Source: Candidatus Pacearchaeota archaeon (GTDB lineage: Archaea > Nanobdellota > Nanobdellia > Pacearchaeales > JAPDKA01). From it: DNA of 64,000 nt. Positions 5,153-55,590 of this stretch are shown piece after piece (the first letter of the stretch is position 1; each line of letters starts with the position of its first letter). The position numbers and the translations under genes were made by a program. The stretch covers positions 419,910 through 483,909 of the forward strand of contig JAWAFA010000001.1 in the NCBI GenBank assembly GCA_038890875.1. Reading direction: 5' to 3'. The notes beneath the pieces are model-generated. The model was not told where the DNA came from. It saw nothing but the letters and a program-made list of their open reading frames with translations, and made no database searches.

Positions 5153-6430
5153 ATGGAAAAACTAAAACAGGAAAAAATAGAAAAAGATAAAGTAAAATTT
5201 TTACAGCCCGATATAAATATTGGGTTAATTGGGCATATTGATCATGGCAAGACAACATTGCTTTACAAACTTTCTGGAAAATGGGCAGATGTGCATAGTG
5301 AAGAGTTAAAACGAGGGATTACAATAAAGCTTGGATATGCTAACATAATCATTAGAAAATGTGAGAAATGTGGTTATTTAACTTACAAAGAAAATTGCCC
5401 GAAATGTAAGGCTCAAACTTTACCTTTAAGAAGTGCAAGTTTCATTGATGCCCCAGGGCATAAGATGCTTATGGCCAGCATGCTCGGAGGAGCAGCGATA
5501 ATTGATGCAGCAATTCTTGTTATTGCCGCAAATGAGCCTTTTCCTCAACCACAAACAAAAGAACACTTTCTTGCTTTTAAAGCAAAAGGCATTAAAGATT
5601 TGATTATTGTCCAAAATAAAATCGATCTTGTAAGTAAGGAACAAGCACTTAAACAATATTATGAAATAAAAGAATTTATCAAAAAGAATTTTGACAAAGA
5701 AGTTTCTATCATTCCTTGCTCAGCTCAGCAAGAAGTTAACATCGACCTTGTTCTTAATGAAATCCTAAAATTGCCGAAACCTGAGCGCGATATTAATGCT
5801 ATTCCTTTATTCCTTGTTGTAAGAAGCTTTGATGTTAATCTTCCTGGCTCTAGCATTGATGATTTAAAAGGTGCCATTCTCGGGGGTACATTAAAGCAAG
5901 GCAGATTGAAAGTCGGGGATATAATTGAGATAAAGCCAGGCTTAGCTGTAACAAAAGAAGTAAAACATGAAAAAGTTATAGAATATAAAACTTTAAAAGC
6001 AAAAATAATAAGTTTAAGAAGTAATGGTGAATTGCAAGAAGCATTACCTTATGGCAATCTTGCAATTCAAACATCTCTCGATCCAGGATTAGGAAAAGCT
6101 GATAGACTTGCTGGTTCAATTGCTGGTCTCGAAGGAAGTTTGCCAGCGATAACAAAAGAAATTCAATTTAAAGCTCAACTTTTTGAAAAACTAGTTGGTA
6201 TAGAAAAGGAAGAGAGTATCAGCGATATTAAACCCAACGAGATTCTTCTTTTAAGCATAAATACTGCAGTGACTGTTGCTAAAGTTGTCAAAGTTGAAAA
6301 AAAAGGGAGAGAATTTTTCGTAAAAGCGAATCTTACAATACCAATTGTTCCCTTTGCAGGCTCTAATATAAGTATTGCAAGAAATTATCAAAACCAATGG
6401 CGTCTAATTGGTTGGGGAAGCCTGCTTTAA
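5153..6430 (+). CDS. eif2g: Translation initiation factor aIF2 gamma subunit.
   Basis: GHIDHGKTTL, the zinc-ribbon CEKCGY...CPKC, and DAPGH. The ORF track starts at TTG 5150; ATG at 5153 is more likely. Confidence 0.9.
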   Translation: MEKLKQEKIEKDKVKFLQPDINIGLIGHIDHGKTTLLYKLSGKWADVHSEELKRGITIKLGYANIIIRKCEKCGYLTYKENCPKCKAQTLPLRSASFIDAPGHKMLMASMLGGAAIIDAAILVIAANEPFPQPQTKEHFLAFKAKGIKDLIIVQNKIDLVSKEQALKQYYEIKEFIKKNFDKEVSIIPCSAQQEVNIDLVLNEILKLPKPERDINAIPLFLVVRSFDVNLPGSSIDDLKGAILGGTLKQGRLKVGDIIEIKPGLAVTKEVKHEKVIEYKTLKAKIISLRSNGELQEALPYGNLAIQTSLDPGLGKADRLAGSIAGLEGSLPAITKEIQFKAQLFEKLVGIEKEESISDIKPNEILLLSINTAVTVAKVVKVEKKGREFFVKANLTIPIVPFAGSNISIARNYQNQWRLIGWGSLL

Positions 6431-6443
6431 ACAAAAATTTAAA

Positions 6444-6851
6444 ATGAAAATTTTTCAACAAGAATTAAAATTGAAAACAAAGCAGAGAGTTGAAATTATT
6501 GATATAACTGAAAGTATTGATAAGGTAGTTAAACAATCAGGAATTAAAAATGGATTATGTTTTGTTAATGTTCTTCACGCTACGTCATGTGTAATTATTA
6601 ATGAGAATGAGCAAGGTTTATTAAAAGATATCAAAGCAAAAATTGAAGAACTTTTCCAAGGCAATTATAAACATGATCAAATTGATGATAATACAAAGGC
6701 GCATCTTGTCAGTGCTTTTATCGGCCAATCATGCAATTACCCTATCAAAGATAGCCATCTCGTTAGAGGAACATGGCAAAATTGTCTCTTTCTTGAGCTT
6801 GATGGCCCTCGTGAACGAAGAATATTTTTAACAATCTTTGGAGAAATATAG
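6444..6851 (+). CDS. YjbQ/UPF0047 family protein (secondary thiamine-phosphate synthase-like).
   Basis: HATSCVIINENE...DDNTKAHL...LVRGTWQNCLFLELDGPRERRIFL matches YjbQ signature regions. Start moved to ATG 6444 to avoid overlap with eif2g. Confidence 0.65.
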   Translation: MKIFQQELKLKTKQRVEIIDITESIDKVVKQSGIKNGLCFVNVLHATSCVIINENEQGLLKDIKAKIEELFQGNYKHDQIDDNTKAHLVSAFIGQSCNYPIKDSHLVRGTWQNCLFLELDGPRERRIFLTIFGEI

Positions 6852-6859
6852 CTCTTAGG

Positions 6860-9367
6860 CTAGGAGCTATTGGAGTTATTGAGGGTTGTTGGCTCTGTTT
6901 TTATAACATCGACATCTATAACTTCGTCATCCGATTTTAACTTAATAATTCTCACTCCTTGAGCAATCCGTGACATGCTCCTTATATCTTTAGCATTGAA
7001 TCTAATTATAATCCCCTGTTTTGTTATTAAAATTATACTCTCATTTCCTAGAATTGTTTTAATACAAACAACTTTTCCTGTTTTTTCACTTAATGAAATA
7101 TTCTTCACTCCTATTGCAGCCCTCTTTGTTAATCTATATTCTTCAATAGGTGTTTTTTTGCCATAACCTTTACTCGTAACTGTTAAAAGCTGTGAACCAG
7201 GTTCAACAATTGTCATGTCTGCAACTTGATCATTCTTTAGCTTAACAGCTGTCACTCCATAAGCAGCTCTTCCCATCTCTCTAACTTCACTACTATTAAA
7301 TCTTACAGCCATCCCTTGTGCGGTAGCAATTATAATTTCACTATCTTTTTCTAAAACAAATGCTTCAACAATTTCATCATCGAAAGGGAGTTTTATTGCG
7401 CGAATGCCACTCTTTTTTATATTTCTGAACTCTTCTAAACTTGTTTTCTTTATTATCCCTTTTCTTGTGACAATTAATAAAAATTGTCTTCCCCCTTTTG
7501 CTTCACCCTTTTCAGCCTTAGCCTTCATTACAATCACTGCTTTTAACCTTTCTTCAGGCTTTATTGCTAACAAATTACTTATATGCTTTCCTTTGCCATA
7601 TCTTGAAGATTTTTGAATTTCATAAGCACGAAGCAAAAATGCATTGCCTCGATTTGTTATAAAGAGAATGTTATCATGTGTTGAACATGCAATAATCTTA
7701 TTAATATAATCATTTTCAGTAAGCATAGTCCCAATTATTCCTTTACCACCTCTCTTTTGCTCGCGAAACTCTTCAATGCTGATAGCATTTATATACCCTC
7801 TATAACTCAATGTTAAAACTATATCCTCTTTTTTTATCAATTCAATCTCACGAATTTCTTTTTTTTCAGCCATGATCTTTGTTTTTCTTTCATCTCCATA
7901 CTTATTTTTTATTTCACGAAGTTCTTCTTCAATTACTTTCAAAATATTTTGTTCAGATTTCAAAATCTCACTAAGTTCAGAAATCTTTCTCTCAAGTTGT
8001 TGTTTTTCTTCCTGTATTCTTTCTTGTTCAAGTTTTGTTAAACGTGAAAGTTTTAAATCAAGAATTGCTTGCGCTTGTTTTTTAGTTAAACCAAAATTGC
8101 TGATTAGCAACTTTTCTGCAACTGTAACTGAATCAGCCTTTTTAATTGTTTCAATAACCTTATCTATCACGCCCAAAGCAATAATAAATCCATCAAGAAT
8201 ATGCTTCCTTTCAGTTGCAACCTCTAGCTCATATCTTGTTCTTCTTTTTACAACCTCTTTTCTATGCTTAACATAATACTCTATAGCATCTTTCAAATTT
8301 AGTAATTTTGGTATTCCAGAAACGAGAGCAACGAAAATTGCATTAAAACTAGTTTCAAGCGAAGTATAGTTATAAAGTCGATTTATTATCAATTTTTCAT
8401 TGGCCTCTTTTTTTAGTTGTAACACTATCCTAATCCCTGCCTTTGTCGATTCATCACGCAAATCGCTCACATCAGGAAGTTTTTTTGTTTCGATAAGCTT
8501 AGCTATCTCTTGAATTAAAATTGATTTATTAACTTGATATGGTAGTTCCTTAATTATAACATACTTTTTACCAGCTTTTTCTTCACTGCTTACCACACCA
8601 CGCATAATTATCTTACCAACTCCTTTTTCATACATTTCTTTCATTCCTTGAGTAAAAATAATGCCTCCCGTCGGAAAATCAGGACCTTTAATGTAATCTA
8701 AAAGTTCATTAATACTAATTTGTGAATTTTTTATGTAAGCAATAATAGCATCAACAACTTCAGTTAAATTGTGTGGTGGTATTGATGTAGCCATACCTAC
8801 AGCGATTCCTTGTGAACCATTTATCAATAAATTTGGCAATTTTGCTGGTAGCACAACTGGTTCTTTCATGCTGTTATCAAAATTGGGCATGAATGGAACA
8901 GTTTCTTTATCCAAATCTTTCAAGAGCTCAACAGCAATTTTACTCAGCTTTGCTTCAGTATAACGCATTGCTGCAGGCGCATCTCCATCAATGCTCCCAA
9001 AATTTCCTTGACCAATAATCAAAGGATAACGTAGAGAAAAATCTTGAGCCATCCTTACTAAAGCATCATAAACAGCAATATCTCCGTGTGGATGTAATTT
9101 TCCGAGACATTCACCAACAATCCTTGCTGTTTTCTTTGTTGGTTTTTCTGGTAAAAGTCCCATTTCATACATTGAATATAATATCCTTCGCTGAACAGGT
9201 TTCAAGCCATCTTCAACACTTGGTAAAGCTCGCGCAACAATTACTGACATTGCATAATCAATATAGGCTTTGCTAACCTCTTCACTTATTTCAGCTACAT
9301 GACCATTTTTATTATTATCACTATTCATATTGTTTTCATTTTTTTCGTCTTTCTTATCTTTCTCCAT
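6860..9367 (-). CDS. gyrA: DNA gyrase subunit A.
   Basis: [26 protein letters not shown] and the active-site Tyr region. 835 aa. C-terminal beta-pinwheel repeats. Confidence 0.95.
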
Positions 9368-9761: not shown

Positions 9762-11663
9762 TTAAATATCAAGTTCAGCTTCTTTTGCATGTTCAATGAT
9801 GAATTGTTTTCTTGGTTCAACTTTTTCTCCCATCAAAATCGTGAATGTTCTATCAGCTTCGATAGCATCTTCAATAGTAATTTGCTTTAGCTTTCTTGTT
9901 TTTGGGTCAAGTGTTGTTTCCCAAAGCTGTTCTGGGTTCATTTCACCAAGCCCTTTAAATCTCGTTACTTCAGCTTTTTCATCTTTAACTAAATCCTTCA
10001 ATTCATCTTCATTATAAACATAATAATCTTTATTCCCTCTTCTTACCCTATAAAGAGGAGGAACTGCTACATAGATATGCCCATTCTCAATAAGTTGAGG
10101 CATATATCTAAAGAAAAATGTTAGAAGTAATGTTTTAATATGCTGCCCATCGACGTCAGCATCGGTCATTATAATTATTTTACCATATCTAAGCTTTGTT
10201 AAATCAAATTCATCACCAACATTTGTACCAACACTTTTTATTAAGGCAGCTATTTCTTCATTGGCAAAAATTTTATTATGCCCTGCTTTCTCAACATTTA
10301 AAATTTTTCCACGGAGTGGTAATATAGCCTGAAATTCTTTGTTTCTTGCTTGTTTTGCACTACCTCCAGCACTGTCTCCTTCAACAATAAAAAGTTCAGC
10401 AATCTCTTTTTTTGTTGATGAACAATCGGCAAGTTTTCCTGGAAGATTCCCGGCAAAAAGAGCCCCTTTTCTTCTTACGAGCTCCTTAGCTTTTTTTGCC
10501 GCTTCTCTTGCTTTAGCAGCTTCGCTAACTTTTTGTAAGATTCTTTTGGCAATACTTAGATTTTCATCAAAAAATTGTGAAAGTTTATTATTGACAACAC
10601 TTTCAACAATTCCTTTAACCTCACTATTTCCAAGTTTTGTTTTTGTCTGGCCCTCAAACTGTGGATTCGGCAGTTTTACATTTATTATTGCTGTTAATCC
10701 TTCCCTCGTATCATCACCCATAATTTTTATTTTTGATTTTTCATCTGCATAATCGCTTAAAACTTTTGTTAAAGCTGTTTTAAAACCTATGACATGTGTA
10801 CCTCCTTCGATAGTATTAATAGTGTTAACAAAGCTAAAAATATGCTCAGTGTAACCATCAAAATACTGTAAAGCAATTTCTACAAACACTCCATTTTTTT
10901 GATCACTAAAATAAATTGGTTTATGTAAAGGATTTTTCTCTTTGTTCAACCATTCAATAAAATCAATAAGCCCGCCTTTAGAAATAAATCTTTCTTTTTC
11001 TCCAGAAGCCTCATTAATTAACTGTATTTCTAAATCTTTATTTAAAAAACTTAGTTCTTGAAGTCGGATTTTTATTAACTTTTGATCGAAGTTAATCGTT
11101 TTAAAAATTTCTGGATCAGGCCAAAACCTAACTTCTGTTCCTGTTTCATCTGTTGTTCCAATTACTTTAACAGGAGTTAAAGCATTACCTCGCTCATACT
11201 CTTGACAATAAATTTTTCCATCTCTATAAACTTTTACAATCATCTTCTTACTTAGTGCATTTACTACACTTGCTCCAACTCCATGGAGGCCTCCAGAAAT
11301 TGCATATACTTTATGATCAAATTTACCTCCAGCATGTAACATTGTCATCACTGTTTCAAGTGCTGATTTACCTGTTTCTTTGTGAATTTCTACAGGAATC
11401 CCTCGCCCATTATCTTTAACACTAACTGACCCATCTTTATGTAATGTAATTTTAATTGATGTGCAATATCCCGCCATTGCCTCATCAATGCTATTATCAA
11501 CAATCTCCCACATTAAATGATGTAATCCCTCTTTACCAGTGCTTCCTATATACATTGCCGGTCTTCGACGTACTCCTTCTAATCCTTTTAATACTTGTAT
11601 AGCTTCCGCTGTATAAGCTTTTGCTTTTTCTTTTTTTTCTTGTTTTTCTTTTTCGTCGGTCAT
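9762..11663 (-). CDS. gyrB: DNA gyrase subunit B.
   Basis: GHKL ATPase motifs (LHAGGKFD), the Toprim motif EGDSAGGSAKQARNKEFQAILPLRGKILNVEKA, and PLYR. Confidence 0.95.
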   Translation of the reverse strand: MTDEKEKQEKKEKAKAYTAEAIQVLKGLEGVRRRPAMYIGSTGKEGLHHLMWEIVDNSIDEAMAGYCTSIKITLHKDGSVSVKDNGRGIPVEIHKETGKSALETVMTMLHAGGKFDHKVYAISGGLHGVGASVVNALSKKMIVKVYRDGKIYCQEYERGNALTPVKVIGTTDETGTEVRFWPDPEIFKTINFDQKLIKIRLQELSFLNKDLEIQLINEASGEKERFISKGGLIDFIEWLNKEKNPLHKPIYFSDQKNGVFVEIALQYFDGYTEHIFSFVNTINTIEGGTHVIGFKTALTKVLSDYADEKSKIKIMGDDTREGLTAIINVKLPNPQFEGQTKTKLGNSEVKGIVESVVNNKLSQFFDENLSIAKRILQKVSEAAKAREAAKKAKELVRRKGALFAGNLPGKLADCSSTKKEIAELFIVEGDSAGGSAKQARNKEFQAILPLRGKILNVEKAGHNKIFANEEIAALIKSVGTNVGDEFDLTKLRYGKIIIMTDADVDGQHIKTLLLTFFFRYMPQLIENGHIYVAVPPLYRVRRGNKDYYVYNEDELKDLVKDEKAEVTRFKGLGEMNPEQLWETTLDPKTRKLKQITIEDAIEADRTFTILMGEKVEPRKQFIIEHAKEAELDI

Positions 11664-16176: not shown

Positions 16177-16863
16177 TTGGAAATGAAATCAAGAAAAAAT
16201 ACTATCAAAGATAAAAGCTATTTTTATGGCCTATCTGTTTTATTTAAATCGCTTTATGCTGCCAATATCCCTGCCGTCTTAGTTGGAGGCACAGCTGTCC
16301 AAGTAAGAATTGCTCGCGCTTTGGCTAAACATAATAATAGCAAGCCAGACATCTCGAAAATTAATGACATTGAAAAATATCTAAGACCGACGAATGACTA
16401 TGATATCTGTGCTTTAAGTAAAGATGACGCGCTCCAAAAAGTAATCCAAGGATTAAATATTGAAGAAGAAATTGATGATGAAATTTATCAAATCGAAGTT
16501 AGTCGAAATGGAATTGTCAAGCCAAAAATCAAAGTTTATAGCTTAAATGGTGCTTATAATGAAACTGAGATTGTATTAAATTTTTCAAGAAATGCTAGCA
16601 ATACAAATTTTTTTAAAGATTATTATGATGAAATGATTTTTTCTGGAGAGGAGATTAGTTTATTTAACGAGCAATTAAAAGCTGAAATTACTGTAGCTAA
16701 ACCAGAATATATTGTTGCGGCAAAACTTATGAGGGGAAAAGAAAGAGATTTTCATGATATTAACCTTTTACTCAACTTTGAAAAAATCGATAAACAAGAA
16801 TTAGCAAGGATTATGAAGCATGAAATTTATCGTTTTGAGAACTTAACCGATCTAAATCATTAA
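16177..16863 (+). CDS. Nucleotidyltransferase-fold protein (minimal NTase, possibly AbiEii/DUF1814-like).
   Basis: Glycine-rich VLVGGTAV followed by DYDI (GS...DxD arrangement of pol-beta-like NTases). Confidence 0.3.
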   Translation: MEMKSRKNTIKDKSYFYGLSVLFKSLYAANIPAVLVGGTAVQVRIARALAKHNNSKPDISKINDIEKYLRPTNDYDICALSKDDALQKVIQGLNIEEEIDDEIYQIEVSRNGIVKPKIKVYSLNGAYNETEIVLNFSRNASNTNFFKDYYDEMIFSGEEISLFNEQLKAEITVAKPEYIVAAKLMRGKERDFHDINLLLNFEKIDKQELARIMKHEIYRFENLTDLNH

Positions 16864-17569: not shown

Positions 17570-20500
17570 TTAATGGCGCACTTTTTTCACTATTATTGCC
17601 ACGGCTAGGATTACTATGATTAAACCAAGTAAAGCAATTATAGCAATATGCCAGTTGCTTTTTAACCAACCTATTACCCCACCAGTTACTGGGATTATGG
17701 GTAATCTGTCGACAAATAAGCCAATTATTGCTGCAGAGTCTACCAACGCTACTACTTTTCCATTCTCTTTATCCCAAACACTCTCTATTTTCCTCCATCC
17801 ACCACCTTCATAATTATAGATAAACAAGTTAGCTCCTTCAGCGAACTCCTCATTGATCTTTATTATTAACTCTACATCTTCACCGAATCTCACAGCTGGC
17901 GTAAACTTGTACGCTCGCACTAAATAAACATCTTGTGGCAATGTTGGAAGCAGCGTTAAATCAGTGATTTTTTCAATTTTTATAGTATTTGGATCGATTT
18001 TATTATTATTGTTATTTACTACCTCTATACTTGATAGTAGCCTCACTATTACTAATCTATCATCACTTTTTATTTCAATAGCCTTAACTTTTGGTTTTGG
18101 CGTTGTTGTAACTGTTAAATTTGGAATAATTTTGCAATCTTGCGGGCAATAAACACTTTCATTGCCTTCACAAATGTTATTGCCACATATTGGCGCTACG
18201 AGAGCTTCTCTTCCTCCTCCACCTCTTTCCTCTACTATCTTTTGCACAACTCTAAAACTAATTGTGCTCCATGCTGAAGTTCCGTGAACATCAGTAACCT
18301 TTACTTTGGCAATATACCTTCCTGGATTGTTATACGTATGAGTTGCTGTTGAAACATTTATTGCACTATAATCAAATGTCCCATCATTTGTCCAGTCCCA
18401 TTCATATGTTATATTATCATTTGTATTAAATTGTCCTCCTATTAATGCATTGAATGAAATCGATTCATCTTCATAATAAGGAGATGGGCTTGTGATAACA
18501 ATTCTTACAGATGGTAATGCAGAACTATTACTTAAGTTTAGTGGGGTGTTATTTGTTGCATTATAAGTGAAATTTGTTGTTATTATAGTACCATTATAAA
18601 GAACATTATCAGTAACATTTGCATCTATTAATGTCGCATTTCCGAGTGTTGAATTTGTTATAATTGTATTGGTTGCCGTTATATTCTCTAAATCAGAATT
18701 AATAACAGTACTATTATTTAAACTTGAATTATTTATTGTTGAATTTGTGACGTTGGAATCATTGAGCATAGAGTTTGTAATTGTTGAATTGTTTGTTGTT
18801 GAATTTGTTAAAGTTGAGTTTTCAATCTCAGAGTTTTCTACAGTTGAATTTATGAGCATTGAATTTGCAACTATTGAATCGCTAATATTACTATAATCCA
18901 AATTTGAGCTTTCAATTGTTGAGTTACTAATATTTGAATAGGTGATATTCGATTCGTTTATTATAGCCTTATCAACATTGGAGTATGTTATATTTGAATA
19001 ACTAACGTTGGAGTAAGTAACATTTGACTGATATGTGTGTGAGTTCGTTAAGTTTGAACCAGTTAAGTTGTTAGTTGGTTGTGGGGGGTCATAGATGCCA
19101 TCAGCAAGATAGCAGTTTGAAGCTATTATACCTTTAACTGTTGCATTGATTACCGTACAATTATTTAAAATTGAATTATTAATTATTGATGCTGTCGCAT
19201 TTACAGCCGTTAGCCAGGAATTTTCTACAGTTGAATTATCTATATTTGAATCTAAGATTAAAATATCCTCATTAAAGTTACCTCCAGCTGATGCTTTAAT
19301 GGTTGAGAAATTCTTTATTATTGAATCATTTATATTATTAAATATTCCTGTTGACTGACTCACATAGAATGTGCCGTTCACTGTCGAATTAAATATCCAG
19401 CCAGTGTCAAGAGTTACTACACTTGTTGTTGTTGATGTAATATTACTAATGCTTGTATTTGAATTGCTTGTTGCAATTACATTTACAATATAAACCCCTG
19501 GATTGGAATCACTAACAGTGAGACTAACTATATAACTTCCCCCTTGATTTAACATAGGAGTTGTTGTTTCATTCAAAATTGCTTGATCAGCATTATTAAT
19601 ATTTTGTATTGTTAAATTAAAGTTGTCTTGAGTATCGCCGATGTTTGTTATATTTATTGTATAAATGGCTGGCTCAAGTAAGCCGACAGTTTGTGATGAT
19701 GGAGTTGCTGTTATGCTTACACCATAGTCTGGAACTGGATTAACTGTTACAATAATAGTGTCATTTGCACTGTATTCGCCATCCGATGCTATAAGTGTAA
19801 CCTCAGCAATTCCATTCCAATTTGGATTTGCTGTTATATTAACTCTTGTGCCAACAAATGTGACGATAACATTACTATTATTTGAAGTAAATGAATAAAC
19901 TAATGTTGCATTATCAACATCCGCAAAGTAATTTGTCATGTCAAGGCTATCATTGTAACTATCTTCGTCGAAAGTTACATCTGGAATTAAGGTGATTAAG
20001 TAAGGAGCATCATTTACAGGGACAACATTTATTGTAACCGTGGCTATATTACTATTAGCTTCTCCATCATTAGCAACATATGTAAAGCTATCTATACCAT
20101 TAAAGTTTGCATTTGGTATATATGTGAAGGAACCGTCAGAGTTGAGAGTTAAGACACCATTGGAGACGTTTGTTACTAAGATTGCTGAAAGTATATCAAT
20201 ATCAATATCAGAATCATTAACTAATAACCCTTGAGCTGTGGGAACAGTTAAGATGTTATCCTCATTTGTGTTATAAACATCATTTTGTATAACTGGAGGC
20301 GTATTTTTTATATCTTTTACTACTGTTATATTACCAGAAAACTCTATTCCATCAAACGCGCCAGCAATTACCAACACATCATCATTTTTATTACAGCCAG
20401 CTGAGGTTAAGCAGTCGAATGTATTATTCGTAGACCAGGTTTGTAATATAACTCCTGTTGCATTATTTCTAAATTCATAATAATAAGTGATAATATCACC

Positions 20501-23341
20501 ATCAACATCGATTGAGCCTGTTGCATTAGCAATTAAGGTTGAACTCTTATAAGCTGGTGTTGGTTCAACTATCAAGCTTGGAGGAGTTGTTGGCGCGTCA
20601 TTTATAGGGTTAACTATAACAGTAACCGTTGCTATGTTTGAAATATTTGCACCATCATTAGCTATATACCTAAAGCTGTCTATTCCATACCAATCAGGTT
20701 CAGGTATATAAATGAAAGATCCATTTGCATTTAATACCAAATTACCATGAGAAACACTATTTACAAGGACGGCTGTTAGTGTATCACCATCTACATCACT
20801 ATCATTTGCTAAAACTCCAGGAGCAGAAATTGTAAGTATATCATTTTCATTTACACTATAAGTATCATCATTAGCAAGAGGAGCATCATTTACTGGACTC
20901 ACATTTATTGTTACAGTTGCAACAGAACTATTATCCATGCCATCACTTACTATATAGCTAAAGCTATCAATGCCGTTGAAGTTTGGATCTGGGGTGTATA
21001 TGAAAGAGCCGTCTGAGTTGAAAATTAAGTTACCATTGCTAACACTACTCACAAGAATTGCTGTTAATGTATCGCCATCAGTATCATTATCATTTGCAAG
21101 CACACCCGGAGCTGGAATGCTTAATGATTCGTCCTCCAAAATTTCATAATAATCATCATTTGCAATAGGCGCATTATTAATTACAGTTGTCGTTATATCT
21201 TGAGTTTCATTATATAATCCTGCATTTATTGTTGAATTGGCATAGACTCTAACTACATAACTTCCTGGAATGCTTGAACTCACGTCGAGCTGTACGAGCT
21301 TACTTTCGCCAGCTCCAAGAATTATAGAACTTTCATTTAGCCAGACATTTGCACCATTATAATTTATAACACCAAGCACAAAATTATTCCAAACATTCCC
21401 AGTGTTTGTTATATTAATAATGTAAGTTGCATTGGCATTTTTTGAAACTGTTCTTGCGTAACTATCACTCTCCAAGATAACACCAAGTTGCAAATCATTA
21501 CTAAATCCTCTCGTGCATTGCTGGAATTGCCAATCACTTAAAGTATTAGTATCTTGGCCATTTGGCACTCGTGCCCAGCAAAGATCATTGCCAAGAGTGT
21601 CGGCAAGATTATAAGATACATCATCAACAATCTGATTGAAGTTATCATACAAAGTTATATTTTCACCACCATTGTTCAATAAGTTTGATGCAGATCTGAT
21701 TAAGTAACTTCCAGCATTGATAATCTGATTTAATGGAAGCACATTTCCTGCAGCGTCACGAATATACCAGCCAGTGACATTAACATCATTTGCTGTCGGG
21801 TTATAAAGCTCTATCCAATCTCCGCTAGGAGTTCCGTTATTGCTTTCAAATTCATTTATGATAATAGCTGGTGGTGGTAAGAGTACAGTAAAGGCAACAG
21901 ATGCGCTTGCTAAATTTCCACTAGTGTCATTTGCCCATGCCTCAATTACATGCATGCCTTGAGCAAAAGTTTGTAAAATTGAATTTGTATATGTTATATT
22001 CACCCCCCCATCAATACTATACCAAACCTGATCAATAGCTACGTTATCGCTAGCACTAATATTTATCAAAATATCGCTTACAGTGTATGTTATGTTTTCA
22101 GGACTAACGATTATTATACTAGGAGCTTGTGTGTCTTGCACAGAAATATTAAAGCTAACACTTGCCGAGCCAACATTGTTGCTTACATCTTGAGCATAGA
22201 TGAATAGTGTATATGCACTATTTGCCAAGGTAAGAGTTGTGTTCTGGCAGCCTGGCAAGTTTTGAGGGGCCCCACCATTTAAAACATACCAACAAGCAGC
22301 TATACCATCATCATCAGAGACAATATAGTTTAATGGAATTGGCAATGATGCATAAGTTTGACCATCTTCAGGGCTAATTATAATGACACTTGGAGCATTG
22401 ATATCCCCAACTATGATTTGTTTTGTTGTACTTCTTTCATCACCATCAGCATCTCTTGCTGTCAACACAACATCGTAAGTGCCAGGCATGTTATAAGCAT
22501 GGCTTACACTTTGGCCATTTGCAATACCACCATCACCAAAATCCCAGCTAAAAGTAAGTGGTGCATCAAATGCTGTTCCACTCGCAATGAAACTTACGAC
22601 TTGGCCTATTGACGGAGAGCTCGGAGAAAAGCTGAAATCAATATTTTCAGGGACAGTATCTATAATGGTAACTCTCCAACCAGCAGAGGCTGTATTACCT
22701 CTACCATCACTTACAATAACTGCTATGTCAAAAACTTGAGCATCATTTACATTTGGTAGCTGCAATAGAAAGCTGTTTCCGCTTGCACTCTGTTGCTGAT
22801 TGTTGACATACCAAGTATAACTCAAAGTATCGCCATTTGGATCACTGGCAATTACAACAAAACTTTGTTGCAGTACGGCTTCACTTACACTAAAGGTATC
22901 TTGTGATGGGCTTTTGCTTGTTATTTGCGGTGGCTGATTAGATCCTTCAAAATAAATCCTTAATGTTTCACTTGTTGCGGTTTTGCCGCTTTTATCTTTT
23001 GTTCTTGCGTAAAAACTATGCCAGCCTGCTGTGTTATGCGTTACAATAGTTTGTAATGCACATGTACTAAAACCAGCACAATCTTTTTCAGAATAGAGTG
23101 CACCATCTTCATAAAGCCATATTTTTATAAGTCCAGCATTGTCGTCAATATCAATCCCATTGGCAAGTAGCGTAGATTGTGAAAATATTGGATTATGTGA
23201 AATTTCGCTTAGGGTAATCTTCGGAGCATAGTCATAAGCTTTTGCTAATTTGAGCATAAATAAGCTAAACATAAATATACTTATTACTAAAAAAGCCAAT
23301 ATCTTTCTATTCATCTTATAATTAATTTTAATGTTTACCAT
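17570..23341 (-). CDS. Giant (1923 aa) cell-surface protein. Domain order: signal peptide/TM, Ig-like repeats, lamin-tail domain, three cadherin-like repeats, NST-x-x pentapeptide repeat tract, PKD domain, Cys-rich stalk, C-terminal TM anchor.
   Basis: N-terminal hydrophobic MNRKILAFLVISIFMFSLFML. LTD signature PPPAIIINEFE...DWIELYNPT...VNVTGWYIRD. Three ~100-aa repeats, each ending VNDAP (DGDTLTAxLVxSVSxGNL...NGIDSFxY). A tract of NSTVENSEIENSTLTNSTTNNSTITNS... PKD-like WDWTNDGTFDY...HTYNNPGRY. C-terminal IAIIALLGLIIVILAVAIIVKKVRH. Very many N-x-S/T sequons. Confidence 0.85.
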   Translation of the reverse strand: MVNIKINYKMNRKILAFLVISIFMFSLFMLKLAKAYDYAPKITLSEISHNPIFSQSTLLANGIDIDDNAGLIKIWLYEDGALYSEKDCAGFSTCALQTIVTHNTAGWHSFYARTKDKSGKTATSETLRIYFEGSNQPPQITSKSPSQDTFSVSEAVLQQSFVVIASDPNGDTLSYTWYVNNQQQSASGNSFLLQLPNVNDAQVFDIAVIVSDGRGNTASAGWRVTIIDTVPENIDFSFSPSSPSIGQVVSFIASGTAFDAPLTFSWDFGDGGIANGQSVSHAYNMPGTYDVVLTARDADGDERSTTKQIIVGDINAPSVIIISPEDGQTYASLPIPLNYIVSDDDGIAACWYVLNGGAPQNLPGCQNTTLTLANSAYTLFIYAQDVSNNVGSASVSFNISVQDTQAPSIIIVSPENITYTVSDILINISASDNVAIDQVWYSIDGGVNITYTNSILQTFAQGMHVIEAWANDTSGNLASASVAFTVLLPPPAIIINEFESNNGTPSGDWIELYNPTANDVNVTGWYIRDAAGNVLPLNQIINAGSYLIRSASNLLNNGGENITLYDNFNQIVDDVSYNLADTLGNDLCWARVPNGQDTNTLSDWQFQQCTRGFSNDLQLGVILESDSYARTVSKNANATYIINITNTGNVWNNFVLGVINYNGANVWLNESSIILGAGESKLVQLDVSSSIPGSYVVRVYANSTINAGLYNETQDITTTVINNAPIANDDYYEILEDESLSIPAPGVLANDNDTDGDTLTAILVSSVSNGNLIFNSDGSFIYTPDPNFNGIDSFSYIVSDGMDNSSVATVTINVSPVNDAPLANDDTYSVNENDILTISAPGVLANDSDVDGDTLTAVLVNSVSHGNLVLNANGSFIYIPEPDWYGIDSFRYIANDGANISNIATVTVIVNPINDAPTTPPSLIVEPTPAYKSSTLIANATGSIDVDGDIITYYYEFRNNATGVILQTWSTNNTFDCLTSAGCNKNDDVLVIAGAFDGIEFSGNITVVKDIKNTPPVIQNDVYNTNEDNILTVPTAQGLLVNDSDIDIDILSAILVTNVSNGVLTLNSDGSFTYIPNANFNGIDSFTYVANDGEANSNIATVTINVVPVNDAPYLITLIPDVTFDEDSYNDSLDMTNYFADVDNATLVYSFTSNNSNVIVTFVGTRVNITANPNWNGIAEVTLIASDGEYSANDTIIVTVNPVPDYGVSITATPSSQTVGLLEPAIYTINITNIGDTQDNFNLTIQNINNADQAILNETTTPMLNQGGSYIVSLTVSDSNPGVYIVNVIATSNSNTSISNITSTTTSVVTLDTGWIFNSTVNGTFYVSQSTGIFNNINDSIIKNFSTIKASAGGNFNEDILILDSNIDNSTVENSWLTAVNATASIINNSILNNCTVINATVKGIIASNCYLADGIYDPPQPTNNLTGSNLTNSHTYQSNVTYSNVSYSNITYSNVDKAIINESNITYSNISNSTIESSNLDYSNISDSIVANSMLINSTVENSEIENSTLTNSTTNNSTITNSMLNDSNVTNSTINNSSLNNSTVINSDLENITATNTIITNSTLGNATLIDANVTDNVLYNGTIITTNFTYNATNNTPLNLSNSSALPSVRIVITSPSPYYEDESISFNALIGGQFNTNDNITYEWDWTNDGTFDYSAINVSTATHTYNNPGRYIAKVKVTDVHGTSAWSTISFRVVQKIVEERGGGGREALVAPICGNNICEGNESVYCPQDCKIIPNLTVTTTPKPKVKAIEIKSDDRLVIVRLLSSIEVVNNNNNKIDPNTIKIEKITDLTLLPTLPQDVYLVRAYKFTPAVRFGEDVELIIKINEEFAEGANLFIYNYEGGGWRKIESVWDKENGKVVALVDSAAIIGLFVDRLPIIPVTGGVIGWLKSNWHIAIIALLGLIIVILAVAIIVKKVRH
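18650..19075 (-). repeat. Intragenic tandem 15-nt/pentapeptide coding repeats (NST-x-x units) inside the giant surface-protein gene.
   Basis: Repeated gttgaatttgt / attgaattat-like units on the plus strand. They encode N-S-T/N-x-T pentapeptides, likely a beta-helix or glycosylated stalk. Confidence 0.6.
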
Positions 23342-45542: not shown

Positions 45543-45615
45543 GGGGCTGTAGTCTAACCTGGTAGGATTCAGGCTTCGGGAGCCTGCGATCTGGGTTCGA
45601 ATCCCAGCAGCCCCA
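45543..45615 (+). tRNA. tRNA-Pro (anticodon CGG).
   Basis: Cloverleaf folds: acceptor GGGGCTG/CAGCCCC, T-arm CTGGG-TTCGAAT-CCCAG, anticodon stem CAGGC/GCCTG with loop TTCGGGA, discriminator A. No encoded CCA. Confidence 0.85.
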
Positions 45616-48234: not shown

Positions 48235-49518
48235 CTAAATCTGCTTTGCCTTAACTTCTATACAAACACCTGCAGCAACTGTTCTGCCAGCATCTCTCAC
48301 CGCAAATCTTGATAAATGAGGATTAACTTTTTGTGTTTCGATAACTACTGGCTTAAGAGGCTTAAGTTTTACAATAGCTACATCACCATTCTTAATAAAC
48401 TCTGGTTTTTCTGGCAATGCTTGCCCTGTTTTGGGGTCGATTTTTTTCTGAATTTCAACAAATTGACAAGGAACTTGTGCTGTATGTATATGAAAGACAG
48501 GAGTATAACCAGGAGCAATAACACTAGGATGATTTATTACAGCTATCTGTGCTATAAACTCTTCGGCTACAGTTGGTGCTTTGTCAACATGAGCAATTAC
48601 ATCTCCTCGTTCAATATCCTGTTTCCCGACTCCTCTAATATTAACACCGACATTATCTCCAGCAACTGCTTCTGGTAATGATTGATGGTGCATTTCAATA
48701 CTCTTAATCTCTCCAACAACTCCTTTTCCCATTCTTGCCGGTAATATAATAACTTTATCCCCAGGTTTCATTCTGCCAGTTTCTATTTTACCAACAGGTA
48801 CGGTACCAACTCCAGTAATGCTATAAACATCTTGTATCGGCATGCGTAATGGCAAATCAACTGGTTTTTTTGGCTCTTCAAACAAATCAAATTGTTCAAG
48901 AACAGTAGGTCCTTTATACCATGGCATTTTTTCACTTTTCTTTGTTATGTTCTCACCATAATAACCAGAAGCTGGTATAAAGTTAATTTTATCAAGCTTA
49001 TAACCAGCAGCTTGAAGTTGCTTTGAAACAGCAGCTTTGACTTCTTCAAATTTTTTCTGTTCATAATTTACAGTGTCCATCTGGTTTATAACAACTGCAA
49101 GTTGATCAACGCCCATTGTTCTTGCGAGAAAGATATGCTCAACTGTTTGTGGCATTACCCCATGCTGAGCTGCTACTATAAGAAAAGCAGCATCAGCCTG
49201 GCTTGCTCCAGTAATCATATTCTTAATGAAGTCTTTATGACCAGGGGCGTCTATAATTGTTACTTGATACTTTTTTGTTATAATTTTACGATAAGCAAGA
49301 TCAATGGTAAGCCCTCGCTCTCGTTCTTCCTTTAATCTATCCATTACAAAAGCAAATTCAAAACCTGCCTTACCAAGTTTTTCAGCAACTTCCTTCATTT
49401 TTTTCAATTCTGTTTCACTAAAATTACCAGTCTCAAAAAGAAGTCTACCTACAGTAGTTGATTTTCCATGATCAACATGTCCTATAAACACAACATTTAA
49501 ATTTGGTTTTTCCGGCAT
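48235..49518 (-). CDS. tuf: Translation elongation factor EF-1 alpha.
   Basis: [21 protein letters not shown]. 427 aa. Confidence 0.95.
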
Positions 49519-49564
49519 TTTTTATTTGTTAAATTGAATTTTTGATTATTTCTTATTAAACTGA

Positions 49565-49583
49565 TTTATTTATAAATCTTTCG
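49565..49583 (-). promoter_or_regulatory. BRE + TATA box upstream of tuf (same 19-mer as the gyrB promoter). The TATA centre is about 53 nt upstream of the ATG.
   Basis: Plus-strand tttatttataaatctttcg, identical to 11681-11699. Confidence 0.4.
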
Positions 49584-49762
49584 CTTTAAAAAATTTTAAA
49601 ATTTTTTTCTCGAAGTTTTTCCTCGAAGCAAAAGTGCCCCCAGCTTGCCTTGCAATCAATTGTGTCTCTATTTCAATATTTGATTATCTCAAACGAAAAA
49701 TTTTTAAAGATTGTCACTATTATATAATAACAAAAAACAAAAAACTGACATTTGTGATTAAA

Positions 49763-50065
49763 ATGAAAGATATCAATGATCTTTATAGATTAAAAATTAA
49801 TGATGAAGTTTTACAAGGCATTTTTATGTGGCAAACTGTAGTTATTGATGATGGTATAAAAGATTATTTGTTGCCTGAAGAAAAAGTTGATGAATATATA
49901 AATCTTTTATGCATAAAACCTGAAAAAGTATTGATGAATATGGCTGAATATAGTTGGAAAAAAGTTCCATGTAATTGTAACCTAGAGGATTGGTTTTCCC
50001 ATGCACTTCATAGTATGAATCTTTCTGAAGCTCTTGAGAAAAAGATTAGTAACATGCTTTCATAG
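49763..50065 (+). CDS. Hypothetical 100-aa protein (CNCN...H...H cluster).
   Basis: Start trimmed to ATG 49763 (MKDINDLY). The upstream part of the ORF is AT-rich promoter-like sequence. Confidence 0.3.
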   Translation: MKDINDLYRLKINDEVLQGIFMWQTVVIDDGIKDYLLPEEKVDEYINLLCIKPEKVLMNMAEYSWKKVPCNCNLEDWFSHALHSMNLSEALEKKISNMLS

Positions 50066-50084
50066 ATCCATATTATATCAATTA

Positions 50085-50417
50085 ATGGTTCAACAACTTC
50101 AACCATATGCGATGGGTGCAATAATGGAGGGGGAAGTAAGAGAAGGTGAATTTCGTGAAGGTCATGCATATAATATAGTTTTTATTCCACAAACAAAAAA
50201 GAGATTTTTAGTTGATACAGCACTTTTGGATGATGGTCAACCAATTGTTGCAGACTATAGTTGTGTTGAAAAATTAGGAGAATACGAACAAATTACAATC
50301 ATATTAAAAGATGGTAAAAAAAGAAAATATTCTGGGTATATATTAGAATATTTAAAAGATCCGGAAAAAACAAAAAAAACTTTTAAAAGCTTACTTATTG
50401 AACTCTGGGAAAGATAA
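50085..50417 (+). CDS. Hypothetical 110-aa protein.
   Basis: Start trimmed from TTG 50034 to ATG 50085. Different frame from the upstream ORF. Confidence 0.3.
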   Translation: MVQQLQPYAMGAIMEGEVREGEFREGHAYNIVFIPQTKKRFLVDTALLDDGQPIVADYSCVEKLGEYEQITIILKDGKKRKYSGYILEYLKDPEKTKKTFKSLLIELWER

Positions 50418-50504
50418 TATTCCATCGGCTTTGAACAAATGCTTGTATATCCCACTTTTTAATTTTTTATTTTTTTAGATTAAAAGATGTTTAAGAAAAA
50501 TTTA

Positions 50505-50577
50505 TGCCCCGGCCGAGATTCGAACTCGGGTCGCAAGCTCGAAAGGCTTGCATGCTTGGCCTCTACACCACCGGGGC
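50505..50577 (-). tRNA. tRNA-Glu (anticodon UUC).
   Basis: Reverse complement folds: acceptor GCCCCGG/CCGGGGC, T-arm CCGAG-TTCGAAT-CTCGG, anticodon stem CAAGC/GCTTG with loop CTTTCGA. Confidence 0.85.
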
Positions 50578-50579
50578 GA

Positions 50580-50688
50580 TGGGCCCTAGCGGATTTGAAC
50601 CGCTGACCTCTGGTTATCCTAGCGCTCTTGTCAAATTGACAAGTGGCCATATAAGACCAGCGCTCTAACCTAGCTGAGCTAAGGGCCC
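50580..50688 (-). tRNA. tRNA-Ile with anticodon UAU, containing a 34-nt intron at the canonical 37/38 position (about 50616..50649).
   Basis: Reverse complement: GGGCCCT-TA-GCTCAGCTAGGTTAGAGC-G-CTGGT-CTTATA[intron TGGCCACTTGTCAATTTGACAAGAGCGCTAGGAT]A-ACCAG-AGGTC-AGCGG-TTCAAAT-CCGCT-AGGGCCC-A. The exon sequence is of the archaeal tRNA-Ile type. Confidence 0.7.
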
Positions 50689-50758
50689 TTAATTTTACCT
50701 AATCCTTTTATTTTAAAAAACTTTACTAATTTACTCGCAAAGCTTTCTCTCTATCCCT

Positions 50759-52246
50759 TTAAATCTTCTTAAATAAAATTTCACTAGTTTCAATTTTATA
50801 ACTTTCTTTTATTCCGAACTTGCAATCACTCATACTTTTAATTTCAAAACCATATTGCTTGGCAATTTTTTCGCACGTTGCTGGAATAAAAGGCCAGAGC
50901 AGAATGACAATTATTCTTATGCCTTCGGCAAGGGTATACAGATTCTGAGAAAGTTTTTCTTTATCCTGCTTCCAAAGTTGATTTTCTTGGATGTAAGCAT
51001 TGCAAAAATCAACAAGCTCAAATATGCTAGCAAGAGCATGATTTATCTTATAATTGTTCATTTCTTCCTTAATTTGTTTTATTTTCTTATTAAATACTTC
51101 TTTAAATTCAGATATAATTTTTGTTTTTTTTATTTCGAGGTTTTTGGCTAGCCCTGCAATTCTTGCTACAAGATTTCCTAGTTTGTCTGCAAGCTCATTG
51201 TTATGCCTTTCAATAAGCTTTTGTTCTGAAAAATCACCATCTTCACCAAAGACGAAATTGCGGCAAATAAAATAACGGACGCTATCAGCGCCATAAGTAT
51301 TGACAAGATAGATTGGCGAGATTACATTTCCTAGGCTTTTACTTATTTTTTGTCCATTGACTGTTAAAAAGCCATGAATAAAAACAGTTTTAGGCAGTTT
51401 ATATCCTGCAGACATCAACATTGCCGGCCATATCACAGCATGAAACCAACCATTATCTTTTCCTAATAAATGTACATCAGCTGGCCAAAACTCTTTCTGC
51501 TTTCCTGCTCCAGTAATATAATTAAGCAATGCATCAAACCAAACATAAACAACATGTTTAGTGCTCGAAGGAAAAGGAATACCCCAACTAAAACCAGTTC
51601 TTGTTATGCTTAAATCTTGAAGCCCTTCTTTGACTCTATTCACGATCTCATTTCTTCTTGTTTCTGGTAAGATAAATTCTGGATGTTTGGCATAAAGTAC
51701 AAGCAATTTATCTTGATACTTGCTTAGTCTAAAAAAATATGATTCCTCACGCAATTTTTCAATCTTTATTTTATGAACAGGGCAACTTCCATCGATCAAA
51801 TCTTTCTCTGTATAATATGCCTCACATTGTGTACAATAATAGCCTTCATAAAATCCTTTATAAATATCCCCTTTTTCATTTACTTTTTTAACAAACTCTA
51901 TAACAAATGCTTCATGATCTTTGTCAGTTGTTCTAATAAATCTGCTGTAATTAATATCTAACTTATCCCATGATTCTTTGAATTTTGCTGCAAGCTTGTC
52001 AACAAACTCTTTCTCACTTAACCCGGCAGCTTTTGCTGCAAGGGCTATTTTTTTCCCGTGCTCATCTGTTCCTGTTAAAAACCATACATTGTAACCAAGT
52101 AATTTATGCCATCGAGCAAGCACATCAGCAATGATTTTTTGGTATGCATGACCTATATGTGGTTCTGCATTAACATAATCAATAGCAGTCGTTACATAAT
52201 ATTTTTTTTGATTCTTTTTACCTCTCTTTTTCAATTTTTCTTGCAT
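50759..52246 (-). CDS. metG: Methionyl-tRNA synthetase.
   Basis: HIGH motif (PHIGHAYQ), zinc knuckle CTQCEAY...CPVH, and KISKSLGN (KMSKS). Confidence 0.9.
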   Translation of the reverse strand: MQEKLKKRGKKNQKKYYVTTAIDYVNAEPHIGHAYQKIIADVLARWHKLLGYNVWFLTGTDEHGKKIALAAKAAGLSEKEFVDKLAAKFKESWDKLDINYSRFIRTTDKDHEAFVIEFVKKVNEKGDIYKGFYEGYYCTQCEAYYTEKDLIDGSCPVHKIKIEKLREESYFFRLSKYQDKLLVLYAKHPEFILPETRRNEIVNRVKEGLQDLSITRTGFSWGIPFPSSTKHVVYVWFDALLNYITGAGKQKEFWPADVHLLGKDNGWFHAVIWPAMLMSAGYKLPKTVFIHGFLTVNGQKISKSLGNVISPIYLVNTYGADSVRYFICRNFVFGEDGDFSEQKLIERHNNELADKLGNLVARIAGLAKNLEIKKTKIISEFKEVFNKKIKQIKEEMNNYKINHALASIFELVDFCNAYIQENQLWKQDKEKLSQNLYTLAEGIRIIVILLWPFIPATCEKIAKQYGFEIKSMSDCKFGIKESYKIETSEILFKKI

Positions 52247-55179: not shown

Positions 55180-55590
55180 TTAAATATTTTTCTCTCGATA
55201 AAGTTTTTCCGATGACGATTTGTACTCTTTATACAAAGTTTCGACGGCTTTAGAATTCACAAAATCATGATGGCGAAAGCCTCCACCAAAAGATTTTGGA
55301 ATGTGGAGAAGTTCATGAATTAGGATTTTAATCTTCTCATCTTCGTCAAGCCTATCAAACTTTTCACTTATTACTTCAATAACATAACGTGGCGAAAGTT
55401 TAAATGCAATTTGTAATGGCTTGCTAAGGCTGTAGCACCTCGCAATAGCGCTTGTTCTTGCATTTTTCGAACGAATACATTCAAGAGAGTCGAGAGCAAT
55501 ATATTCCATTCCTAGTATTTCTACAATTTTCTTAACTTTTTCTTTTATATCATTTGCTTCTTCATAAATAATCGATTTTCTTCGTTTCAT
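55180..55590 (-). CDS. Putative zinc-dependent metallopeptidase (HExxH; SprT/WLM/DUF45-like).
   Basis: ILIHELLHIPKSFGGGFRHHDF. Confidence 0.35.
   Translation of the reverse strand: MKRRKSIIYEEANDIKEKVKKIVEILGMEYIALDSLECIRSKNARTSAIARCYSLSKPLQIAFKLSPRYVIEVISEKFDRLDEDEKIKILIHELLHIPKSFGGGFRHHDFVNSKAVETLYKEYKSSSEKLYREKNI

Follow-up and report, generated by a model that had tools for sequence, protein, structure and literature searches.

An intron-containing tRNA-Ile(UAU) gene that probably reads AUA in a Pacearchaeota-related DPANN archaeon

How are AUA codons read in this Pacearchaeota-related archaeon? In most archaea the task falls to tRNA-Ile2(CAU), modified with agmatidine by TiaS (PMC3575796, PMC6000648), and, in surveys covering 167 and 217 complete genomes of archaea, a tRNA-Ile with the anticodon UAU was confined to N. 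equitans and K. cryptofilum (PMC8450103, PMC6000648). The 64-kb stretch of DNA analysed here, hereafter the window (GC 26–37%), contains a gene that reads as an intron-bearing tRNA-Ile(UAU). We think it very probable that the gene is functional, that its host is a low-GC member of DPANN akin to Pacearchaeota, that the tRNA encoded ('tRNA-Ile3') reads AUA and that it takes the place of TiaS and tRNA-Ile2(CAU). Features of this kind are already known, also from DPANN, and the window adds a Pacearchaeota-like member.

Gene structure and splice register

The gene was delineated with Rfam, in which RF00005 matched 109 nt of the minus strand at 61.1 bits, against a gathering score of 29 (E 8.8e-11). 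Both in the window and in a local rescan, the match ran over the full model (positions 1–71), with an insertion of about 35 nt in the anticodon loop. Read on the minus strand, the precursor runs GGGCCCU UA GCUC AGCUAGGUUA GAGC G CUGGU CUUAUA // UGGCCACUUGUCAAUUUGACAAGAGCGCUAGGAU // A ACCAG AGGUC AGCGG UUCAAAU CCGCU AGGGCCC A, with double slashes at the intron boundaries (Table 1). Once the intron is removed, a 75-nt tRNA remains whose cloverleaf is intact, with acceptor, D, anticodon and T stems of 7, 4, 5 and 5 bp, fully paired in a hand-built structure, a T-loop UUCAAAU and a 7-nt anticodon loop CUUAUAA that includes U33 and A37. The fold of the precursor is more stable than that of shuffled sequences (z = -4.1), none of 200 shuffles being as good. 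The original prediction of a tRNA-Ile body with a UAU anticodon and an intron is thereby borne out by the Rfam match, the loop and the single productive register described below; direct reading also agrees with it on the gene's coordinates, on the intron length of 34 nt and on the 37/38 position, and places the gene on the minus strand.

Table 1. Positions in the window of the tRNA-Ile(UAU) gene, its parts and its flanking elements
Feature	Position	Strand	Description and basis
TATA-like box	50706..50720	-	A/T-rich, UUUUUUAAAAUAAAA; 18-32 nt upstream of tRNA nt 1; putative promoter element
Pre-tRNA-Ile(UAU), complete	50580..50688	-	G1 = 50688, discriminator A73 = 50580, CCA not encoded; Rfam and direct reading
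5' exon, 39 nt	50650..50688	-	acceptor GGGCCCU, D arm, CUGGU, loop C32 U33 U34 A35 U36 A37
Anticodon U34 A35 U36	50651..50653	-	Ile codon AUA; direct reading and sole productive BHB register
Intron, 34 nt	50616..50649	-	UGGCCACUUGUCAAUUUGACAAGAGCGCUAGGAU, canonical 37/38 site; direct reading and register search
Intron hairpin	50627..50643	-	CUUGUCA-AUU-UGACAAG, prolongs outer BHB helix; folding and covariation
Intron nt 29-32 (UAGG)	50618..50621	-	4-bp central BHB helix with C32-A35 (CUUA); hand model and enumeration
3' exon, 36 nt	50580..50615	-	begins A38-ACCAG, ends at discriminator A73
tRNA-Glu(UUC)	50505..50577	-	begins 2 nt past A73 of tRNA-Ile(UAU); ARAGORN and Rfam (61.0 bits)
Oligo-T run	50496..50500	-	just past tRNA-Glu; putative archaeal transcription terminator, from sequence

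Three tRNAs were found in the window with Rfam, and only tRNA-Ile(UAU) contains an intron. ARAGORN, as run here on the window, called tRNA-Pro(CGG) (45543–45615) and tRNA-Glu(UUC) only and missed tRNA-Ile(UAU), presumably because of the intron. As it missed or mis-called intron-containing genes in the window and in the homologous loci, we set it aside as a gene caller for them and used Rfam and custom parsing instead. As annotation, the window gene is a routine case of a real tRNA overlooked by a bacterial-mode tRNA finder.

To locate the splice sites, we enumerated every bulge(3)-helix(4)-bulge(3) motif across the 109-nt precursor. Of the seven registers obtained, a single one uses the 5-bp anticodon stem for its inner helix and releases a 75-nt tRNA with its four arms intact; with each of the other six, part of the cloverleaf is lost. 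The 5' bulge of the productive register consists of U36, A37 and the intron nucleotide U(i1), and its 3' bulge of A(i33), U(i34) and A38. The outer helix is made of the intron pairs G2-C28, G3-C26 and C4-G25, with G27 bulged, and is extended by the hairpin CUUGUCA/UGACAAG; its shortness and the bulged G count against it. From its sequence, the gene is thus predicted to carry a canonical archaeal 37/38 bulge-helix-bulge (BHB) intron. The original prediction had suggested looking for this motif at the splice sites and had allowed for another intron placement with an anticodon other than UAU; enumeration returned the canonical 37/38 BHB and one productive register, in which the anticodon is UAU.

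This BHB is not thermodynamically favoured, as the anticodon arm with the intron folds at -12.4 kcal/mol in the BHB form compared to -17.1 for the minimum free energy (MFE) structure. RNAalifold on five relatives likewise favours a competing UGGC/GCUA helix, which is broken in one of the two closest loci (L024), where the BHB helix is intact. Since the BHB appears neither in the single-sequence MFE structure nor in the RNAalifold output, we tested it by enumerating registers and counting pairs; its MFE status is a caveat and no defining requirement for endonuclease substrates. Across the BHB and the hairpin in the five related sequences, all 84 cells were paired, and four pairs had changed on both sides compared to one in every slid control, in what is a small sample (n = 5). 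The central helix keeps all four of its pairs in all five close relatives and, being invariant, is uninformative for covariation. In a wider set of 84 homologous introns, intron nucleotides -6 to -3 pair perfectly with C32-A35 in 54, most of the others pairing at three of the four positions, and the 3' motif U-R-R-G followed by two nucleotides and A38 is kept in the canonical register by most.

The hairpin within the intron can be drawn with 7 bp and the 3-nt loop AUU, or with 6 bp and a 5-nt loop. Its existence had been predicted correctly, but the proposed 8/7 arrangement with a 2-nt loop was wrong, the arms being CUUGUCA and UGACAAG with 7 bp around 3 nt. Among the five relatives, three of the six hairpin pairs counted show compensatory changes on both sides, with 100% of cells paired. 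Inspection also ruled out that the intron houses a box C/D guide, the 34 nt containing neither a C box (RUGAUGA) nor a D box (CUGA).

Conservation of the gene and its locus

The closest loci that we found, L075 (isolate JZ-1_201803_bins_104) and L024 (isolate ZZQ_201803_bins_78), are both labelled Candidatus Pacearchaeota. DNA identity to the window is about 74–77% across shared genes in the former and about 68–74% in the latter, which retains the order tRNA-Ile, MetRS, GTPase, Kae1. The mature tRNA-Ile(UAU) is 100% identical to that of the window in L075 and 93% identical in L024, and the L075 intron differs by replacement of a U-A by a C-G pair and of an A-U by a G-U pair in the hairpin. Both loci share the intron plan of the window gene, which is also common to three metagenome relatives (L122–L124), where it reads UGGCC, hairpin, an A-rich stretch and GCGC-UAGG-AU and where the hairpin letters differ and still pair. 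A contig of 4 kb identical to the window is present in the Logan assembly of SRR27730025.

In 71 distinct mature homologues, the T-stem, which our homologue parser does not constrain, is 99–100% canonical, with as many as six types of pair at a position; A73 never varies. Pairing of the acceptor and anticodon stems is 100% by construction of the parser and was therefore not counted as evidence.

The gene lies between MetRS (52246..50759) and tRNA-Glu(UUC). An element comparable to its TATA-like box, TTTAAA or TTTATA, occurs at the same distance in most of 11 aligned relatives. The 2-nt spacer between the two tRNAs implies a dicistronic precursor in which the cleavage sites of RNase Z and RNase P are nearly adjacent, and tRNA-Ile(UAU) and tRNA-Glu(UUC) are probably co-transcribed. 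A tRNA-Glu(UUC) gene is found within the same 2–8 kb locus as tRNA-Ile(UAU) in about 20 Nanoarchaeota-type loci among the matches listed. Head-to-tail tRNA-Ile/tRNA-Glu tandems were also seen in L123 (about 6677–6870) and L076 (1341–1516), with spacers of 3–4 nt. A low-threshold Rfam scan of 49400–50900 returned no RNAs besides the two tRNAs.

Proteins encoded in the window include archaeal EF-1alpha, Kae1, MetRS, a YchF-type GTPase, aspartate kinase, ribosomal protein S6e, prefoldin, an IF-2B-family protein and further housekeeping proteins. We ruled out that the tRNA gene sits in a mobile element or at an integration site, as its flanks are the core housekeeping genes MetRS, EF-1alpha, YchF-type GTPase and Kae1, syntenic in L024. 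In the roughly 1 kb between EF-1alpha and tRNA-Glu (49519–50504), there are only two plus-strand ORFs, 49634–50065 and 50034–50417, called as genes of 100 and 110 aa in the Logan contig; neither has a Pfam or NCBIfam match, and 49519–50504 has no Rfam match even at E<=1. Elsewhere in the window, we noted a protein with a 'putative phage metallopeptidase' domain (PF18894, E 2.6e-21) at 55180–55590 (-), an AbiEii/DUF6036-like nucleotidyltransferase with borderline scores at 16177–16863 (+), and an ORF of 1923 aa with an N-terminal hydrophobic segment at 17570–23341 (-). Two large ORFs at 6860–9367 (-) and 9762–11663 (-) have N-termini that, judged by the look of the sequence, resemble DNA gyrase A and B; they share 74–77% DNA identity with the Pacearchaeota locus L075.

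Might the gene nevertheless be a decaying pseudogene, or a tRNA-like sequence arisen by chance? The missing ARAGORN call and the departure of the BHB from the MFE fold would fit such an origin, which is effectively refuted by the score of 61 bits against the tRNA model with all stems intact, by a mature sequence that is identical in a different species and an intron that varies with compensatory changes, by the conserved position beside MetRS and tRNA-Glu, by the conserved promoter-like box and by an AUA usage, described below, that demands a decoder. No more credible is that the intron is cut in another register, or never, and that the mature anticodon is then not UAU. Both the MFE structure and RNAalifold favour pairing the 5' end of the intron outside a BHB, which would speak for this; however, all six alternative 3-4-3 registers wreck the cloverleaf, shifts of the cut sites by 1–3 nt give an identical product owing to the repeat of AUA at the two junctions, the 3' motif in the canonical register is kept in most of the 84 homologous introns, and in vitro cleavage of the ARMAN-2 homologue at its 37/38 intron agrees with prediction (PMC3239211). 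The reading that we retain is that of a functional tRNA-Ile(UAU) gene spliced at 37/38.

AUA decoding and the agmatidine system

In the genes of the window, AUA occurs at 34–39 per 1000 codons, more often than AUG, and makes up 34–42% of Ile codons, EF-1alpha included; with such heavy usage, a dedicated AUA decoder is needed in bulk. The tRNA has Ile-type features, namely A73, A35, U36, A37, A38, C4-G69, U12-A23 and the variable loop AGGUC. Identity elements of E. coli tRNA-Ile are A73, A35/U36, A37 for t6A, C4-G69, U12-A23 and C29-G41 (PMC9976931); position 29-41 is G-C in the window gene, compared to the minor determinant C29-G41, and the determinants compared are those of E. coli, which may differ in archaea. 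The gene for Kae1, which synthesizes t6A37, lies 3 kb away.

Taken together, these features suggest the following pathway. Transcription would be driven by the gene's own TATA-type promoter and probably yield a dicistronic precursor of tRNA-Ile and tRNA-Glu, whose ends would be trimmed by RNase P and RNase Z before addition of CCA. In the precursor, C32-A35 would pair with the intron UAGG and produce the canonical BHB, which the archaeal splicing endonuclease is expected to cut after A37 and before A38, with RtcB-type ligation yielding the 75-nt tRNA. IleRS would then charge this tRNA, and AUA codons would be read through U34:A pairing, so that the agmatidine system of most archaea, TiaS with tRNA-Ile2(CAU), would be replaced. 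Transcription, processing, charging by IleRS and the modification state of U34 are deduced here from the DNA. Neither EndA nor RtcB was found among the approximately 40 window ORFs scanned with NCBIfam or Pfam.

The presence of the gene makes it probable that AUA is read without agmatidine. ARMAN archaea, N. equitans and K. cryptofilum possess tRNA-Ile(UAU) and lack both TiaS and tRNA-Ile2 (PMC3239211, PMC8450103, PMC6000648, PMC3575796). Because N. equitans and the ARMAN lineages, which also belong to DPANN, lack TiaS, phylogenetic bracketing would place the genome from which the window derives among those with neither TiaS, as the original prediction proposed, nor tRNA-Ile2(CAU). It could be argued instead that tRNA-Ile(UAU) is functional and redundant, with TiaS and tRNA-Ile2(CAU) kept in the same genome and nothing replaced; the view of the genome given here is one of 64 kb, and a high AUA load could favour two decoders. 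The archaeal cases of tRNA-Ile(UAU) described in the papers cited, on the other hand, all go together with loss of TiaS and tRNA-Ile2 (PMC3239211, PMC8450103, PMC3575796). In the window, which is a small part of the genome, no TiaS match was obtained among about 40 ORFs scanned with NCBIfam or Pfam, and no CAU tRNA is present among the three tRNAs detected with Rfam. Redundant decoders are rarely retained in small DPANN genomes, which also counts against redundancy, and we consider it quite unlikely that both systems coexist.

Among known systems, the closest counterparts of the window gene are those of ARMAN-2, -4 and -5, which have an intron-containing tRNA-Ile(UAU) and lack tRNA-Ile(CAU) and TiaS (Fujishima et al. 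2011; PMC3239211). In ARMAN-2, the pre-tRNA-Ile(UAU) has a 25-nt intron at 37/38 with a strict BHB, and is cleaved in vitro by its endonuclease (PMC3239211). Like the window gene, the ARMAN genes (Micrarchaeota/Parvarchaeota) belong to DPANN, combine a UAU anticodon with a 37/38 BHB intron and are read as a replacement of TiaS and tRNA-Ile2(CAU). They differ in lineage and in the sequence and length of the intron (25 nt in ARMAN-2, 34 nt here), and splicing of the window gene is predicted from sequence. The tRNA-Ile3(UAU) of N. equitans and K. cryptofilum is also an archaeal Ile tRNA with a UAU anticodon, from genomes without tRNA-Ile2(CAU), and in K. cryptofilum the gene carries an intron (PMC6000648). 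A parallel exists in bacteria, where tRNA-Ile2(UAU), for instance that of Mycoplasma mobile, stands in for a modified-cytidine system, TilS being absent there as TiaS would be here. In contrast to the window gene, it has a bacterial body, no intron and often an encoded CCA; the M. mobile tRNA has an unmodified U34, to which IleRS is adapted (PMC3575796).

Distribution and intron retention across DPANN

To survey homologues, we scanned one genome per GTDB species with the pattern TAGCTCAG-N3-5-GGTNAGAGCG-N5-CTTATA, a deliberately narrow query that fixes a D loop of archaeal length and an anticodon loop C-U-UAU-A. At least 120 loci matched, and among the matches listed 118 are of archaeal type, almost all with DPANN labels (Woese-, Pace-, Nano-, Micr-, Iain- and Aenigmatarchaeota). 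Among these matches, a 37/38 intron is present in 28 of 48 loci with a Micrarchaeota-type label, in 42 of 44 labelled Woese-, Pace- or Nanoarchaeota, and in 21 of 26 that are otherwise labelled or unlabelled, the last group including Iainarchaeota, Aenigmatarchaeota, unlabelled archaeal MAGs and non-DPANN-labelled MAGs with DPANN-type genes. Intron length at 37/38 varies from 13 to 143 nt among the matches listed. Complete DPANN genomes, for example OZ242164.1 and OY969902.1, are among those with the gene.

The original prediction limited the known occurrence of tRNA-Ile(UAU) to a handful of lineages, with Nanoarchaeum and Korarchaeum as examples. That statement is outdated, given ARMAN-2, -4 and -5 (PMC3239211) and the at least 118 archaeal-type loci, almost all with DPANN labels, reported here. 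In the 167–217 complete genomes surveyed, N. equitans and K. cryptofilum stood out as the two isolated, 'classic' cases, whereas the window gene belongs to a much larger, DPANN-wide set of at least 118 loci. Judging from these sequences, reading AUA with a UAU anticodon appears to be the rule in DPANN and not a curiosity of two genomes. In the open papers on TiaS, agmatidine or agmatinylcytidine in DPANN, nothing relevant was found beyond the ARMAN paper (PMC3239211); the breadth of tRNA-Ile(UAU) in DPANN may be under-reported, yet it is an expected extension of known cases. For annotation of DPANN MAGs, it means that a 'missing' tRNA-Ile2 or TiaS should not count as incompleteness, and a DPANN-wide use of UAU bears on ideas about the evolution of AUA decoding.

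Several genes of DPANN type, with an archaeal D loop, BHB introns and no CCA, lie in MAGs labelled 'bacterium', Saccharibacteria, Methanosarcinales, Methanothrix or Marsarchaeota (L015, L103, L016, L023, L029, L109, L093, L082), and are probably on mis-binned or mislabelled contigs. Two of the matches listed, in Meiothermus luteus (L094, 186–345) and in a WWE3 MAG (L017, 3773–3850), are genuinely bacterial tRNA-Ile(UAU) genes and encode the CCA. In the M. luteus locus, a CAU tRNA, called tRNA-Met by ARAGORN, follows 5 nt after tRNA-Ile(UAU).

The intron itself is retained preferentially. In 18 loci of Woese-, Pace- or Nanoarchaeota type, all 18 tRNA-Ile(UAU) genes are 92–135 nt long, compared to 71–75 nt for 20 of the 22 other tRNAs there, which are intronless; retention is thus 42 of 44 for the tRNA-Ile(UAU) genes with these labels among the matches listed against at most two of 22 for neighbouring tRNAs. 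One of the two long neighbours is a 117-nt tRNA in the SSU-LSU spacer of a Woesearchaeota locus (L039, 7087–7203), probably intron-containing; in the same locus (5536–8000), tRNA-Ile(UAU) lies 2 kb upstream of the rRNA operon.

In eukaryotes, pseudouridines 34 and 36 of tRNA-Ile(UAU) are made, by Pus1 in yeast, only on the intron-containing precursor (PMC11408192). The eukaryotic gene shares with those of DPANN the UAU anticodon and a 37/38 intron that pairs with the anticodon, and, given this pairing with the anticodon loop and the preferential retention, the DPANN case resembles the eukaryotic one. Intron dependence in eukaryotes is that of the Pus1 modification, whereas the likeness in DPANN is one of sequences. 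Preferential retention may by this analogy suggest a role of the intron in anticodon modification, a concrete hypothesis that can be tested. A stronger version would be that the DPANN 37/38 intron is kept because it is needed, and not as a passive relic, directing or blocking modification of U34 or U36 and so preventing misreading of AUG. Preferential retention and maintenance of the hairpin by compensatory changes, with C32-A35 sequestered in a helix, lend it indirect support; 20 of the 48 Micrarchaeota-labelled homologues listed are intronless, and the intron is therefore not universally required. We regard this stronger version as unlikely, though worth keeping in mind.

Besides the 37/38 intron, about 21 of the homologues listed have a second insertion 3' of the anticodon arm, mostly in the T arm; the T-arm insertion, seen in about 20, measures 26–159 nt (after GTTCAAA, near 59/60), with carriers L016, L018, L023, L026, L028, L029, L031, L042, L045, L051, L060, L063, L071, L078, L092, L096, L111 and L116. 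Homologues with introns both in the T arm and at 37/38 belong with the multi-intron tRNA genes described from ARMAN, unlike the window gene, which has no T-arm insertion. A Woesearchaeota-type subfamily of introns, about 44–50 nt long, contains near the intron 5' end a conserved hairpin with a tetraloop, NNNN-AUUC-RUNA-GAAU-NNNN, that is unlike the window intron and recurs in many species (L002, L011, L015, L037, L055, L061, L067, L069, L085, L099, L103, L106 and L118).
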